Of a stretch of DNA of 8,280 bases, positions 1 through 6,627 are shown piece after piece. How positions within the stretch are numbered: the stretch's first letter is position 1; each line of letters starts with the position of its first letter. A model generated the notes under the pieces. It saw only the letters and a list, made by a program, of their open reading frames with translations, did not search any database and was not told the origin of the DNA. Position numbers and translations under genes: made by a program. Origin of the DNA: a virus. Taxonomy: Duplodnaviria; Heunggongvirae; Uroviricota; Caudoviricetes. Location of the stretch: the IMG/VR virus record IMGVR_UViG_2703718778_000005. The stretch is one strand, 5' to 3'.

Positions 1-190
<190 letters not shown>

Positions 191-191
191 C

Positions 192-2078
192 TTACTCTTC
201 CATCGCCTGGCGGATCTGATCCAACGACGCTGGATCATCAATGGTCGTCAGATCTCCAGGATCGCGTCCTTCGCAAATCGCCTGGATCGTGCGGCGCAGC
301 ATTTTTCCGGATCGCGTTTTTGGCAATTGCGAGACAAACCAGACGTGCGCCGGGCGGCCAAAGTTGCCAATCTGGCTGTCCACCAGCGCCATAATCGCCT
401 TCTCTTGCGAATGCGCCACATCACGATCTTCCAGACTGTCGCTCTCTTTCGGAATGACAAACGCTACCGCCACCTGCCCTTTCAGCGCATCTTTCACCCC
501 AACCACCGCCACTTCGGCAACGCCCGGATGACTGGAAATACTCTCTTCAATCTCGCGCGTGCCCAGCCGATGCCCGGCAACGTTAATCACATCGTCAGTG
601 CGCCCGAGAATAAAGTGATAACCGTCAGCATCGCGGATGCCCCAGTCAAAGGTGGCGTACACCGGACGGGAAAACAGCGACCAGTACGTCTTCACAAAGC
701 GGTCGTCATCGCCCCAGATGGTCTGAATACACCCCGGCGGCAGCGGCCCTTCCACCACCAGCATCCCTTTCTCGTTGACGCCACACGGTTCGCCGGTGAC
801 TTCATTAAGCAACTGCACGTTATAGCCATACATCGGCACGCCGGGGCTTCCCAGACGCGTCGGCCTGTCGTCCAGACCGCGAGCAATCGCCATAATCGGC
901 CAGCCGGATTCGGTCTGCCAGTAGTTGTCGATGACCGGCACATCCAGCGTATTGCTCACCCAACTGGCGGTCGGCTCGTCCAGCGGTTCTCCAGCCAGAT
1001 AGAGCACTTCCAGCGACGAGAGATCGTGTTTGCGAATTTCAGCGGTAGGGAATTTTTTCAGCACGCGAATGGCGGTCGGCGCTGAGAACATCCGGCTAAC
1101 CTGATATTTCTCGACGATTTTCCACCACACGCCGCAGTCCGGCCAGGTCGGTAATCCTTCGTAAACGATAGTCGCCATCCCCGCCAGCAGCGGCGCGTAG
1201 ACGATATACGAATGCCCCACCACCCAGCCGATATCCGAAGCACAAAAGAACACACCGCCCGCTTTGCCGCCAAAAATGGTGTCCATCGAGGTCGCCAGCG
1301 CCACCGCATATCCGCCGACGTCACGCTGCACGCCTTTAGGTTTGCCGGTCGTGCCGGAGGTGTAGAGAATGCAGGAGGTTTCGTTGGATTCCAGCCACGC
1401 CACCGGTACCCGCGCGCCGATGTGTTGATGGCGCAACGACGCGAAATCGACATCCCGCCCGCTGACGCGCGCCATTTTCGCCAGCCCGCGATCCACCAGC
1501 AAAACATGGCGCGGCTGGTGCTGCGCCTGACTTATCGCATCGTCGAGCAATTTTTTATAGGGAATGATTTTGCCACCGCGCGCTCCGGCATCAGCCGAGA
1601 CAATCAGCACCGGTTTAGCATCATCAATTCGCGCCGCCACGCTGTGCGAGGCAAATCCACCAAACACCACCGAGTGAATAGCGCCAATGCGCGCGCAGGC
1701 CAGCAGGGTAATATGCGCTTCGGCAATCATCGGCATATACACCAGCACCCGATCGCCACGCTGCACGCCCAGCGAGCGCAGCATTGACGCCACCGCGTTT
1801 ACTTCGTCATGAAGCTGGCGAAAGGTAAAGGTGCGCTCTTCTTCTGTTTCCGAAGAGACGGCAATCAGCGCCAGCGCCTCTGGCTGTTTCTCCAGCCAGC
1901 GATCGATAGCGTTGTGACACAAGTTGGTTCGGCCTTCACAAAACCAACGGGCAAACGGCGGATTGCTGTGATCGAGCGTTTGCGTAAAGGGCGTCTGCCA
2001 GTCAATACGCCGGGCCTGCTCGGCCCAGAACTGCTCCGGTTCGTTAATCGAACGCTGATAAAATTCGCTAAAAGACAT
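192..2078 (-). CDS. prpE: Propionate--CoA ligase (propionyl-CoA synthetase), acyl-CoA synthetase family
   Basis: 628-aa ORF whose length and sequence match E. coli PrpE as I recall it; contains the AMP-binding motif YTSGTTGKPKG. ATG at 2076-2078 preceded on the minus strand by AGGAGAG with a 4-nt spacer; TAA stop at 192-194. Last gene of the operon. Confidence 0.96.
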   Translation of the reverse strand: MSFSEFYQRSINEPEQFWAEQARRIDWQTPFTQTLDHSNPPFARWFCEGRTNLCHNAIDRWLEKQPEALALIAVSSETEEERTFTFRQLHDEVNAVASMLRSLGVQRGDRVLVYMPMIAEAHITLLACARIGAIHSVVFGGFASHSVAARIDDAKPVLIVSADAGARGGKIIPYKKLLDDAISQAQHQPRHVLLVDRGLAKMARVSGRDVDFASLRHQHIGARVPVAWLESNETSCILYTSGTTGKPKGVQRDVGGYAVALATSMDTIFGGKAGGVFFCASDIGWVVGHSYIVYAPLLAGMATIVYEGLPTWPDCGVWWKIVEKYQVSRMFSAPTAIRVLKKFPTAEIRKHDLSSLEVLYLAGEPLDEPTASWVSNTLDVPVIDNYWQTESGWPIMAIARGLDDRPTRLGSPGVPMYGYNVQLLNEVTGEPCGVNEKGMLVVEGPLPPGCIQTIWGDDDRFVKTYWSLFSRPVYATFDWGIRDADGYHFILGRTDDVINVAGHRLGTREIEESISSHPGVAEVAVVGVKDALKGQVAVAFVIPKESDSLEDRDVAHSQEKAIMALVDSQIGNFGRPAHVWFVSQLPKTRSGKMLRRTIQAICEGRDPGDLTTIDDPASLDQIRQAMEE

Positions 2079-2117
2079 AATGCTCTCCTGTTGAACTTAC
2101 GCCTTACCGCCGTTTAC

Positions 2118-3569
2118 TTAAATGACGTACAGGTCGAGATACTCATTGACCGGCATCTGTTCCAGGCGAGCTCTGTCGAGAGAAACCTCCAGAATGCGCT
2201 GCTGCTGGCGAGTCGGGAACTGGCGCGCGAGATTGATTTTGAATTTATCCACCAGCTTCGGAATGCCATCCTGACGGCGGCGAGCATGACCAATGGGGTA
2301 CTCCACCACCACTTCTTCAAAGCGCGTGCCGTCGGTGAACTCAAGAGTAATGGCATTGGCGATGGCGCGTTTTTCCGGGTCGTGGTAGTCAGCGGTAAAC
2401 GTCGGATCTTCAAAGCAATTGATCTTCTCGCGCAGGGCGTCAATGCGTTTATCTTGCGCAACGTTGTCCTCGTAATCTGCCGCCGTTAAGCGCCCGAACA
2501 ACAGCGGGATCGCCACCATGTATTGAATGCAGTGGTCGCGGTCAGCCGGGTTATTGAGCGGCCCTTTTTTGTCGATGATGCGAATACAGGCTTCGTGGGT
2601 GCGAATGGTCACTTTTTCGATATCCGCCGCCGTTTTGCCTGCTGCTTGCATCTGTTCATAGAGCGTCATCGCCGCTTCAACTGCCGTCTGGGAGTGGAAC
2701 TCCGCCGGGAAGGAGATTTTGAACAGCACATTTTCCATGACGTAAGAACCGTACGGGCGCTGGAAGCGGAACGATTCACCTTTGAAGGAGACGTCGTAGA
2801 AGCCCCACACCGGCGCAGTCAGGGCTGACGGGTAACCCATTTCGCCCGTTTTCGCCATCAGTGCCAGACGTACCGCGCGGGAAGTGGCATCGCCCGCCGC
2901 CCAGGATTTACGCGTGCCGGTGTTCGGCGCATGGCGATAGGTGCGCAGCGACTGACCGTCCACCCACGCCAGCGAAACGGCGTTGAGAATTTCCTCGCGG
3001 GTCAGGCCAAGCATTTCGGCGACCACGGCGGTGGAAGCCACTTTCACTAACAGAACGTGGTCGAGGCCAACGCGGTTAAAGGAGTTTTCCAGCGCGATGC
3101 AGCCCTGAATTTCATGGGCTTTGATCATTCCGGTCAGCACCTGTTTCATGGTCAACGGCGCTTTGCCGCTGGCGACCGCGTTGCGCGAAAGCCAGTCTGC
3201 CGTTGCCAGAATGCCGCCGAGGTTGTCGGAAGGATGCCCCCACTCCGCCGCCAGCCAGGTATCGTTGAAATCGAGCCAACGGATCATCGCGCCGATGTTA
3301 AATGCCGCCTGGACGGGGTCGAGCTGGAACTGAGTTCCGGGGACGCGCACGCCGTTAGGTACGACGGTGCCGGGGACAATTGGCCCCAGCAGTTTTTTAC
3401 AGGCTGGGTATTCGAGAGCTTCAAGACCGCAGCCGAGCGTGTCGAGCAGGCAGTAATGTGCGGTGTCGTAGGCTACTTTGGAGCTGATTTCGTAGTTCAT
3501 GACGTAATCGACGATATCAACGATTTCACGATCAAATTCCGGGCGGATGTTGTTGATTTGAGCTGACAT
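2118..3569 (-). CDS. prpD: 2-methylcitrate dehydratase (MmgE/PrpD family)
   Basis: 483-aa ORF matching E. coli PrpD in length and sequence ([23 protein letters not shown]...EYLDLYVI). ATG at 3567-3569 with AAGGAA upstream; 39-bp gap to prpE. Confidence 0.96.
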
Positions 3570-3602
3570 TGGGTACGTTTCCTTATTGTTATTCGTAGAG
3601 GT

Positions 3603-4715
3603 TTACTGGCGCTTATCCAGCGCGACAAACTGGCGGTCTTCCGGTCCAACATAATTGGCGGAAGGACGGATAATTTTGTTGTCCTGACGTTGTTCGATAA
3701 TGTGCGCCGCCCAGCCGGTGACGCGGGCGATAACAAACAGTGGTGTGAACATCTCGGTGGGAACGCCCATCATGTTGTAGGAAACAGCAGAGAACCAGTC
3801 GAGATTGGGGAACATCTTTTTGCTCTCCCACATCACCGTTTCCAGGCGATCGGCGATGTTGTACATCTTCAGCGAGCCGCCTTCCTGCGAGAGCTGCTTC
3901 GCCACACGTTTAATCACCTGGTGGCGCGGGTCAGCGATGGTGTAAACCGGATGACCAAAACCAATGACCACTTCTTTGTTTTCCACGCGCTTGCGGATAT
4001 CTGCTTCGGCTTCGTCCGGCGTTTCGTAGCGTTGCTGGATCTCCAGCGACACTTCATTCGCCCCGCCGTGTTTTGGCCCGCGCAGTGCGCCAATCGCGCC
4101 AATAATCGCGGAATACATATCAGAGCCGGTGCCCGCAATCACCCGACTGGTAAAGGTGGAGGCGTTAAACTCGTGTTCGGCGTACAGCACCAGCGAGATA
4201 TGCATCGCCTTTTCCCAGCTTTGCGATGGCTTTTCGCCGTGCAGCAGATGCAGGAAGTGACCGCCGATGGAGTCGTCATCGGTTTCCGGTTGGATGCGTT
4301 CGCCGTTGTGGCTGTAGTGATACCAATAAAGGAGAATCGAGCTAAGCGACGCCAGCAGTTTGTCGGCAATATCCCGCGCGCCAGAGACGGTATGCCCCTC
4401 TTTTTCTGGCAGCGTGCAGCCGAGCGCGGAAACACCGGTGCGCATAACATCCATCGGGTGTGACGCCGCCGGTAAGGCTTCCAGCACGGTACGCACGTTA
4501 GCCGGTAAACCACGCAGGGCTTTCAGTTTCGTTTTGTAAGCGGCGAGTTCGTCACGGGTCGGCAGTTTGCCGTGGATCAGCAGATGAGCCACTTCTTCAA
4601 ATTCGCAATGTTCCGCCAGATCAAGAATATCGTAGCCACGGTAATGCAGGTCATTGCCACTTTTACCCACGGTGCAGAGCGCCGTATTGCCCGCCGGAAC
4701 GCCGGAAAGTGCCAC
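3603..4715 (-). CDS. prpC: 2-methylcitrate synthase, 5'-disrupted (N-terminus replaced at the prophage junction plus a frame break; probable pseudogene or N-truncated product)
   Basis: The 370-aa ORF from GTG at 4713-4715 matches E. coli PrpC from about residue 20 ([33 protein letters not shown]...) to the C-terminus (...FVALDKRQ). Codons matching residues ~10-17 (STHVIKPK) lie at 4746-4723 in a different frame, and no in-frame ATG or native N-terminus exists upstream. Confidence 0.85.
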
Positions 4716-4748
4716 CGATTTTTCGGTTTAATGACATGGGTACTGTAA

Positions 4749-4769
4749 CACCCCGCATAACGCGGGGTG
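4749..4769 (-). other. GC-rich hairpin (8-bp stem, 5-nt loop) downstream of int; weak or non-canonical terminator, or att-arm structure
   Basis: caccccgc-ataac-gcggggtg is a perfect 8-bp inverted repeat. On the minus strand it is followed by TTACAGTACCC, so there is no U-tract and it is not a canonical intrinsic terminator. Confidence 0.35.
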
Positions 4770-4775
4770 CTGAAC

Positions 4776-4788
4776 TATCAACAACTTA
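4776..4788. promoter_or_regulatory. Candidate IHF-binding site in the att arm
   Basis: TATCAACAACTTA fits the IHF consensus WATCAANNNNTTR exactly. A related motif ATCAACGAC recurs at 4806-4814. Confidence 0.25.
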
Positions 4789-4877: not shown

Positions 4878-5858
4878 TCAAACACCCAGTCCTCCACCAA
4901 GCGGATTTAGCGTAATCGCGTGCTGAAGAAAGTCCGGCGAAAGATGCGCATAAATCATCGTTTGCTTGATGCTGGCGTGCCCCATGATTTGCTGAAGCGC
5001 GATAATGTTTCCTCCGTTCATCATGAACCAGCTGGCGAACGTGTGGCGAAGTACGTGCGTTGACTGGCCCCGTGGTAAGTCAGGTTTTACACGCCGCAAC
5101 TGCTCGCGGAACTGAGCATAGTTCACATCAAAGAACGGCCCCGTTTCGCAGGTTTTGATCTCCCGCTCCAGCGCTTCCGAGATCGGCACCGTCCTTTTTT
5201 TGCCGTTCTTCGTTTTCAGAAAGGTCACACGCCCATGATTGACCTGCTCTGCCCGTAGCGTGCTTCCCTCATTCCACCGCGCCCCGGTACTGAGACACAG
5301 CAACGCCACCCGACGATTATCACCCTCCAGAAATTCCAGCAATCGGGCGATCTCCTGCTTTGTAAGGTAAGTCATCGGCGGCTGCGCCTCCCGTAGCGGC
5401 AGCAAACCGCGACAGGGATTTTCAACCCGAAATTCACCGAGTTTAATCAACGCGGTAAACATACCGGACAAACGATAGATATCGCGGTTAATGGTTGATG
5501 CGCTAATGCCATCTGTAAGCCGTTCGCCGCGATGCCTGGCAATTTCACGCTTATCAAGCCGGTTAACAGCCGGATTACCCAGCGCCCTGATTGTTTTTTC
5601 CAGTTGTTGCCTTTCGATTGCGCCGTTCTCCAGTGTCTGACCATGCAACAGCCACCAGATATCCAGCAATTCCCCAAGTGTGCGGCGATCAGTACTTGCG
5701 CCGAGCCATTCTTTTTTCTCGACGTTTGCCATCACATACCGCTCAAACAGGATAGCTTCCTGTTTTTTCTTGAAACGTCTGCGTATGCGTTTGCCTTCAC
5801 GACCACGCGGGTAAATATCCACCTGATATTGCCCCCCTTCGAGCTTCTTAATCGTCAT
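4878..5858 (-). CDS. int: Tyrosine site-specific integrase, P2/186/HP1 family
   Basis: 326-aa ORF. N-terminus MTIKKLEGGQYQVDIYPRGREGKRIRRRFKKKQEA is typical of P2-family integrases. C-terminal catalytic signature is present: TGARWNE (Arg), HVLRHTFAS (His-x-x-Arg), MIYAHL (Tyr nucleophile). Minus-strand RBS GGAGGG 7 nt upstream of ATG 5856-5858. Confidence 0.93.
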   Translation of the reverse strand: MTIKKLEGGQYQVDIYPRGREGKRIRRRFKKKQEAILFERYVMANVEKKEWLGASTDRRTLGELLDIWWLLHGQTLENGAIERQQLEKTIRALGNPAVNRLDKREIARHRGERLTDGISASTINRDIYRLSGMFTALIKLGEFRVENPCRGLLPLREAQPPMTYLTKQEIARLLEFLEGDNRRVALLCLSTGARWNEGSTLRAEQVNHGRVTFLKTKNGKKRTVPISEALEREIKTCETGPFFDVNYAQFREQLRRVKPDLPRGQSTHVLRHTFASWFMMNGGNIIALQQIMGHASIKQTMIYAHLSPDFLQHAITLNPLGGGLGV

Positions 5859-5924: not shown

Positions 5925-6248
5925 TTAACCAGTTTTGCGGACGGAGCGGCGCGACGTTGCCACATCTTCGCGCCCATCAGGGGAGAGAGTCGGGGCAATC
6001 TGCCCTGATTCCGGCGCAGTAGTATCAGTCATCAGCCACAGGGCGTACTTCTGAAACCGTGGGTGTGTTGTGATTTTGAGCAAAATTTCACTACCGACAC
6101 CATCCCTTCTCCCTGTCTCGTACTGTTTTTGAGTACTGGCAGGGACACCTGTAAGATCAAAGAATTGGCTTCTGGATAACCCTTCTGCATCTCTTATCAA
6201 ACGAATTTTTTCTCCTATCGAGCTTGACAGGGGTTCATATGACACCAT
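5925..6248 (-). CDS. Immunity repressor, P2 C-family
   Basis: 107-aa ORF with helix-turn-helix-like segment LSRSQFFDLTGVPASTQKQYETG and a C-terminal block WLMTDTTAPESGQIAPTLSP...KTG that closely parallels P2 C (...APESGQIAP...GQKTG) as I recall it. Located just upstream of and co-oriented with int, as in P2. RBS GAGGG 6 nt before the ATG. Confidence 0.85.
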   Translation of the reverse strand: MVSYEPLSSSIGEKIRLIRDAEGLSRSQFFDLTGVPASTQKQYETGRRDGVGSEILLKITTHPRFQKYALWLMTDTTAPESGQIAPTLSPDGREDVATSRRSVRKTG

Positions 6249-6345
6249 ATATTGCCCTCATTGGTTTCAATTGACACCATTCAATTAATACCGCTATAAG
6301 CGGATATAAACCGCCAATAGCACCAGAAAAAGGGGATTATTACAC
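6249..6345. promoter_or_regulatory. Lysis-lysogeny switch region between divergent C and cox (early and repressor promoters with operators)
   Basis: 97-bp AT-rich gap between divergent start codons. Contains TTGACA (6271-6276), the palindrome CCGCTATAAGCGG (6291-6303) and tandem 9-mers TATAAGCGG / TATAAACCG (6295-6303, 6305-6313) spaced 10 bp apart. Confidence 0.5.
6271..6300 (+). promoter_or_regulatory. Candidate sigma70 early promoter (Pe-like) driving cox and downstream genes
   Basis: TTGACA at 6271-6276, 18-bp spacer, TATAAG at 6295-6300. The -10 sits inside the tandem TATAA(G/A)C(G/C)G repeats, as expected if the repressor occludes the -10. Confidence 0.3.
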
Positions 6346-6627
6346 ATGAGAGACAGAGAGCTGGAGCGATATATCAACATCGGCTACCCAATTGATGCCG
6401 TCCCCGGCCCCAAATTCGCCGAGATGATCGGTAAACCGGCATCCGCTGTGAGTGACATGATTTCAGACGGAAAACTACCAGTTATTAAATGGCAGAACCC
6501 TAACGCTCTACGTTCACGCGCTGAAAACTGGATCTACATACCAGAATTCAACAAAGCGATGCGCGAAGCATTCTTTGCTCGCCCGAAAGAGCAACGGGAC
6601 GCATGGTTGTTGTGGATTGGATTGTGA
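6346..6627 (+). CDS. cox: Cox-family excisionase / switch repressor (P2 Cox-like)
   Basis: 93-aa ORF. FAEMIGKPASAVSDMISDGKLPVI...WIYIPEFN...RPKEQRDAWLLWIGL parallels P2 Cox (FAKLIGKSTGAVRRMIDKGKLPVI...WVYLPAWN...RPKEIRDGWLMWLGL) as I recall it. Divergent from C. Confidence 0.85.
   Translation: MRDRELERYINIGYPIDAVPGPKFAEMIGKPASAVSDMISDGKLPVIKWQNPNALRSRAENWIYIPEFNKAMREAFFARPKEQRDAWLLWIGL

Follow-up and report, generated by a model that had tools for sequence, protein, structure and literature searches.

A probable single-nucleotide deletion beside a P2-like prophage junction in Escherichia coli prpC

The window analyzed here, the whole 8,280-nucleotide stretch of IMG/VR virus record IMGVR_UViG_2703718778_000005, joins bacterial genes of propionate catabolism to the integrase end of a prophage, and the reading frame of prpC breaks at a short run of adenines close to the point where the two meet. 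Is this break a genuine deletion, an error in reading a homopolymer, or a phage-derived variant of the attachment core, the three origins proposed in a preliminary description of the locus, and what does it cost a gene that already ends at a prophage? The comparisons below lead us to regard it as an ordinary homopolymer deletion (less likely an error) in a prophage-split gene. The features on which the argument turns are as follows; the prophage side of the window also carries genes with DUF4761 and DUF4754 domains.

192-2078, minus strand: prpE, 628 aa, intact (open reading frame [ORF] and domain)
2118-3569, minus strand: prpD, 483 aa, intact (ORF and domain)
3603-4715, minus strand: longest remaining prpC ORF, 370 aa, starting at a GTG that is native codon 20 and holding the whole citrate-synthase domain
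4716-4777, minus strand: start-less junction stretch, from the phage-side TAG (4777-4775) to the GTG at 4715, its frame broken by the A5 run
4719-4723, minus strand: A5 run (T5 on the plus strand), one nucleotide shorter than the A6 of prpC codons 17-18
4735-4746, minus strand: attachment-site core ACAGTACCCATG, prpC codons 9-12, common to both prophage junctions in relatives
4749-4769, minus strand: G+C-rich, phage-derived hairpin CACCCCGC-GTTAT-GCGGGGTG, recognized from its fold, adjoining the core and without a T-tract
4878-5858, minus strand: P2-family tyrosine integrase (int) of the prophage in prpC, 326 aa (ORF, homology and domain)
5925-6248, minus strand: C-repressor-like helix-turn-helix gene of the lysogeny switch (5925-6627), from its domain and the annotation of relatives
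6346-6627, plus strand: cox, facing the C-like gene in the lysogeny switch, from its domain and the annotation of relatives

The frame break: deletion or sequencing error

The identity of the broken gene is clear: it is 100% identical to E. coli prpC apart from a single gap, it stands in prpC-prpD-prpE synteny, and the domains Citrate_synt, MmgE_PrpD and AMP-binding follow one another in line with that order. On the minus strand the run reads CCG-AAAAA-TCG, the counterpart of the plus-strand T5 at 4719-4723, within the sequence ...ACAGTACCCATGTCATTAAACCGAAAAATCGGTGGCAC..., and the junction as a whole is laid out as GCGGGGTGTT-ACAGTACCCATG-TCATTAAACCG-AAAAA-TCGGTGGCACTTTCC. Upstream of the run one frame encodes STHVIKPK; the body of PrpC, down to its terminal KRQ*, is carried by a different frame, in which a TAA lies directly upstream of the run. 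Read from the minus strand, both the coordinates of the run and the two frames are as the preliminary description gave them, and the PrpC N-terminus that it gave was correct: STHVIKPK matches residues 10-17 of the uninterrupted PrpC of E. coli HS. In relatives with six adenines the run makes up codons 17 and 18 (AAA AAA, Lys17-Lys18). Calling the fragment a 5' remnant of prpC was mistaken, as the junction holds codons 10-389, some 97% of prpC; what does remain of the 5' end, codons 1-12, is found beyond the window at the opposite prophage end, where we read it in relatives.

Every comparator in these alignments has six adenines. The nearest relatives of the host part of the window (1-4746) are several Shiga-toxin-producing strains in which prpC is uninterrupted. 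The alignment with them agrees at 4746 of 4747 positions; it contains 0 mismatches and a single gap, the missing A, so that the comparison with close relatives suggested earlier returns this single difference in 4746 nt. When the uninterrupted HS gene and five complete-genome lysogens are aligned with the window, all six have A6 and the window alone has A5. Four further lysogen contigs, taken as representatives from an integrase homology search, also carry A6, which makes nine of nine for the other lysogens of this prophage family. The contrast with relatives is deterministic and involves no statistical pattern.

The same length prevails far beyond these strains. Short A5 queries in three local allele contexts matched 1201, 2362 and 443 records among RefSeq complete genomes (4006 in total), all at 98.0% (48/49), which corresponds to A6, and no exact A5 match occurs among these 4006 records with the three alleles tested; megablast returned A6 genomes with a gap, and the search is hence usable as a census of tract length. 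A metagenome scan with a pattern allowing A4 to A7 found at least 120 contigs; all 120 matches listed are A6, and A5 is absent among them. We did find A5 at the same tract in two unrelated non-RefSeq assemblies with an uninterrupted prpB-prpC (L009 and L010, 1477-1500 in each), where it reflects either recurrent slippage or recurrent sequencing error. The second of them has a further frameshift, a +T in prpD at about 3161, and about 22 additional contigs share the tract context of the pair. A5 is therefore present on three unrelated backgrounds: that of the window and its sibling contig (below), that of L009 and that of L010.

Does the strain itself carry five adenines, or has its consensus lost one from a true A6? 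The second reading, which we judge a good deal less probable, deserves a serious hearing. The site is a 6-base homopolymer, and A5 is found in none of the 4006 complete-genome records, the 120 listed metagenome contigs and the nine other lysogens, a state so rare that it is of a kind errors also produce. The sporadic A5 tracts come from unrelated non-RefSeq assemblies, of which L010, also frameshifted in prpD, resembles error-prone assemblies. Against this, both the integrase and the A5 recur in a sibling contig of 8275 nt, LOIO01000077.1 of GCA_001607355.1, which differs from the window by one single-nucleotide polymorphism (SNP), at 6227, over 6403 nt; since the sibling differs by a SNP yet shares A5, two separate assemblies agree. 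The protein accessions of these two assemblies (KYU..., KYW...) hint at one project, and if project and platform were shared, a context-specific error could have been repeated in both. The remainder of the window, however, does not look like an assembly with widespread homopolymer errors: the host part keeps its four other 6-base runs at full length, no other indel occurs in 4746 nt, and all ORFs, prpD, prpE and int included, are intact across the 14 runs of at least 6 bases in the window.

We infer that the break arose by mutation, through slippage, and not in sequencing; the likely state is a genuine, inherited deletion of a single A (A6 to A5) in codons 17-18 of prpC, in host-derived DNA. 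Among the origins first proposed, a real 1-bp deletion is thus favored, by the intact state of the other runs and the A5 of the sibling assembly, with the homopolymer error less likely and the attachment-site variant refuted, as the next section describes.

The SNP between window and sibling has a setting of its own. Position 6227 falls in the first hexamer (6224-6229) of the best promoter-like site of the switch region, TTGACA-18-TATATT (11/12), on the plus strand and facing cox; the sibling reads TTGGCA. On the opposite strand the same base belongs to codon 8 of the C-like repressor gene. At the left end of the window, positions 1-190 are a REP-like palindromic sequence, and in the nearest complete relative (L084, 1-600) a REP-like stretch is followed by a copy of IS621; the 8.3-kb contig probably ends where it does because of such an adjoining IS621 copy.

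The attachment core and the origin of the A-run

A P2-like prophage sits in codons 9-12 of prpC and splits the prpBCDE operon. Homology to uninterrupted prpC begins at 4746, and the core, ACAGTACCCA(TG), occupies window positions 4746-4735; its length is 12 bp in EcPF40, while in KY171, a lysogen that matches the window at 98.7% identity over the int region, the core is 10 bp (ACAGTACCCA). In EcPF40 the element is a P2-like prophage of ~37.5 kb with a full P2-like structural module, inserted between prpB and the rest of prpC (L007, 4100-41570). Its junction on the prpB side reads ATGAGCGACACAACGATCCTGCAAAACAGTACCCATG-CTAGTAAATATCC..., and that on the int side reads ...GCGGGGTGCG-ACAGTACCCATG-TCATTAAACCGAAAAAATCGG; uninterrupted prpC across the site is CAAAACAGTACCCATGTCATTAAACCGAAAAAATCGG, and the prpB-side junction of KY171 is ...CAAAACAGTACCCA-AGTTAAAAAATATCC.... 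In relatives, prpB and prpC codons 1-9 thus lie at the other end of the prophage, 33-37 kb away.

These junctions settle the side to which the run belongs. In both EcPF40 and KY171 the phage arm diverges from prpC right after the core, continuing as CTAGTAAATATCC or AGTTAAAAAATATCC, respectively, versus TCATTAAACCGAAAAAA in prpC, and everything from TCATTAAACC onward on the int side is bacterial. Identity between the junctions stops at ACAGTACCCA(TG) in these two relatives, and the run (4723-4719) lies 11 nt outside the stretch that they have in common; the A-run is therefore host DNA, and the proposal that it is a phage-derived variant of the attachment core is refuted. One could still imagine that A5 arrived with the phage copy of the core, or by exchange beyond it. 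A mere 11 nt do separate the deletion from the core, the P' arm of the phage is loosely similar to prpC right after the core, and the KY171-type arm has an A6 run of its own, at a different offset. We nevertheless give this origin almost no credence: both relatives in which two junctions could be read have CTAGTAAATATCC or AGTTAAAAAATATCC, and not TCATTAAACCGAAAAA, in the phage arm, and the int-side junction of all nine other lysogens is A6. Strand exchange by tyrosine recombinases is, moreover, confined to a short overlap within the core. Nor does the proximity call for a link to integration. The reference host part, 4.7 kb long, contains five runs of 6 identical bases, and the one that is shortened is the run nearest the junction, an outcome with a chance of about 1 in 5 if such runs are the likely targets.

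The hairpin at 4749-4769 would be both the end of the int transcription unit and the P arm of attP; it was not flagged as a canonical terminator. A SEN4/SEN5-like integrase group, ~80% identical, has the same order of int, hairpin and core, with GAAGACAGGGATGGTG as its core versus ACAGTACCCATG here, which supports the placement of the core directly after the hairpin. In that group the hairpin follows int by about 100-150 nt (L015-L075). Such a conserved layout suggests, as far as sequence can tell, that the hairpin may be part of the attP architecture or may serve as the int terminator.

A search of complete E. coli genomes found the prpC junction in 5 of 5426. Integrases of the close cluster also occur on hundreds of draft contigs, and one member is shared with Citrobacter rodentium. 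Other collections returned only more distant elements. The phage collection holds integrases of at most 73% DNA identity, with other cores, and no free-phage attP for this core; IMG/VR holds only the ~80%-identical group with core GAAGACAGGGATGGTG, and no exact match to the window junction or to the hairpin plus core; and among species-representative genomes the integrase relatives reach at most 80% identity, none of them in prpC. Literature searches on P2-like phages in prpC found no description of an attachment site in its coding sequence, and a search on prpC frameshifts gave nothing relevant. A 93%-identical integrase of 333 aa belongs to a different element (L227, 1-3402; ENA ERZ28667040 scaffold_129), where it directly follows a large Toprim-domain primase gene, precedes an Ogr/Delta gene and has no adjoining prpC; this element may be a P4-like satellite with a borrowed integrase type.

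In its general plan the junction conforms to P2-family (Peduovirinae) integration: int adjoins the junction and is followed by a C-like repressor and cox, and a short core stands at both junctions. It departs from that plan in the place of the core, which is neither an intergenic site nor a tRNA gene but the coding sequence of prpC. Integration within a metabolic gene is known from phage 21 and e14 in icd; those elements, however, carry a replacement for the gene end, whereas the prpC prophage shares 10-12 bp with the gene and in most of its variants supplies no canonical replacement start, so that prpC is split rather than restored. The use of the prpC coding sequence as an attachment site is a more notable context than the deletion.

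What remains of prpC at the junction

Neither the native ATG nor the upstream prpB and promoter of an intact prpC is present at the window junction; codons 1-9 and prpB are missing from it, and the frame is broken a second time over at A5. The preliminary description was right to count one base too few for an in-frame gene, but it missed the larger lesion, the splitting of the gene by the prophage. In A6 relatives the junction stretch is an open, start-codon-free extension of prpC: in lysogens with the window-type arm there is no in-frame ATG, GTG or TTG from the phage-side TAG (4777-4775) to codon 20. A promoter scan of the minus strand flagged no sigma-70-like site in the interval from int to prpC, and on direct reading of the sequence neither the ATT nor the GTG considered below is preceded by a Shine-Dalgarno-like motif. 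Even with A6, then, prpC at the junction is without a canonical start, a ribosome-binding site or the prp promoter, because the prophage separates them from the body of the gene, and lysogens presumably do not express prpC.

The first canonical in-frame start left is the GTG of codon 20 (4715). It lies downstream of the A-run, so the 370-aa ORF that it opens is the same with A5 or A6. This ORF spans positions 2-357 of the 357 in Pfam Citrate_synt, and solved methylcitrate synthases of 375 aa align from E. coli residues 17-20 onward, close to the start of the ORF; its product, if ever translated, would probably fold. RefSeq annotates prpC of A6 lysogens as a 376-aa coding sequence starting at an ATT, native codon 14 (L001, 5169-6299; likewise L003-L006). 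Given that no canonical start exists upstream of the GTG at codon 20, this call probably serves the convenience of annotation and does not denote a functional gene.

Two variants are worth recording beside these annotations. The prpE of KY171 (L001, 7824-9710) carries an internal stop and a pseudogene annotation, which would fit a decay of the prp operon following prophage insertion. In L224 (2275-2330; Logan SRR33953910 contig 47) the phage arm that flanks the core is shorter by a single base, GATAGTTTTCACCCC versus GATAGTTCAGCACCCC, and the same arm occurs in L225. Unlike most variants of the prpC prophage, L224 with its short arm puts a phage TTG in frame and yields a 393-aa PrpC call with a phage-encoded N-terminus, an ORF that may have arisen by chance or may partly restore the gene.

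Might the change of frame itself be functional, as an adaptive mutation that restores a start, a phase-variable tract or a recoding site? The presence of A5 on at least three prpC backgrounds (window, L009 and L010) and of an ATG in the core, 14 nt upstream of the run, invites the question, but we consider such a role very improbable. The 11 nt together with the length of the run must be a multiple of 3 for the core ATG (4737-4735) to be in frame with PrpC, a relation that needs A4 or A7; with A5 the ATG opens an ORF of 24 codons only, and we rejected it as a restored PrpC start. The TAA directly upstream of the run in the PrpC frame stands against the idea as well. Phase variation was likewise rejected: A5 brings no start codon into frame, and a tract that is invariant in thousands of genomes, with no A5 in the 4006 complete-genome records or the 120 listed metagenome contigs, shows a variant far too rare for a switching locus. 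Recoding fares no better. Past the TAG at 4777-4775 the upstream frame contains no ATG, GTG or TTG and hence no start codon, which leaves nothing to recode, and all relatives are plainly in frame with A6; both observations argue against programmed ribosomal frameshifting and transcriptional slippage alike. Six adenines are, in addition, short for transcriptional slippage, and a run of this kind is too short to sustain that explanation.

A proposed sequence of events and its meaning

The course of events that best accommodates these observations would run as follows. A P2-like prophage integrated into prpC at a core of 10-12 bp, and this insertion carried the prp promoter and ribosome-binding site, along with the ATG and codons 1-9, to the far prophage end. 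The A6 tract, 11 nt downstream of the core, would have lost one A, most simply by replication slippage. Integration and deletion may have occurred in either order, and the deletion would be a secondary lesion in a split gene. With the gene severed by the prophage and the GTG start downstream of the run, the deletion itself is probably silent, without a consequence of its own.

The closest precedent for the deletion is the class of homopolymer slippage indels in bacterial pseudogenes, with which it shares the loss of a single base from an A6 run in a disrupted gene, rare and sporadic elsewhere. Nothing material sets it apart from them; its closeness to a prophage junction, 11 nt, is what chance could produce with five N6 runs available. 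A more ambitious interpretation would make the A6 tract a natural hotspot where recurrent slippage, as A5 on three unrelated backgrounds might suggest, has time and again disabled propionate catabolism in E. coli lineages; another would have the integrase be locally mutagenic near its core. Both seem to us highly improbable.

For annotation, prpC here is best regarded as a pseudogene through prophage insertion and not mainly through the frameshift. The prediction for lysogens of this type is a methylcitrate cycle that cannot operate, unless read-through from int provides for expression of prpC. A P2-like family that targets the coding sequence of prpC is, finally, of modest interest for catalogues of prophage sites.
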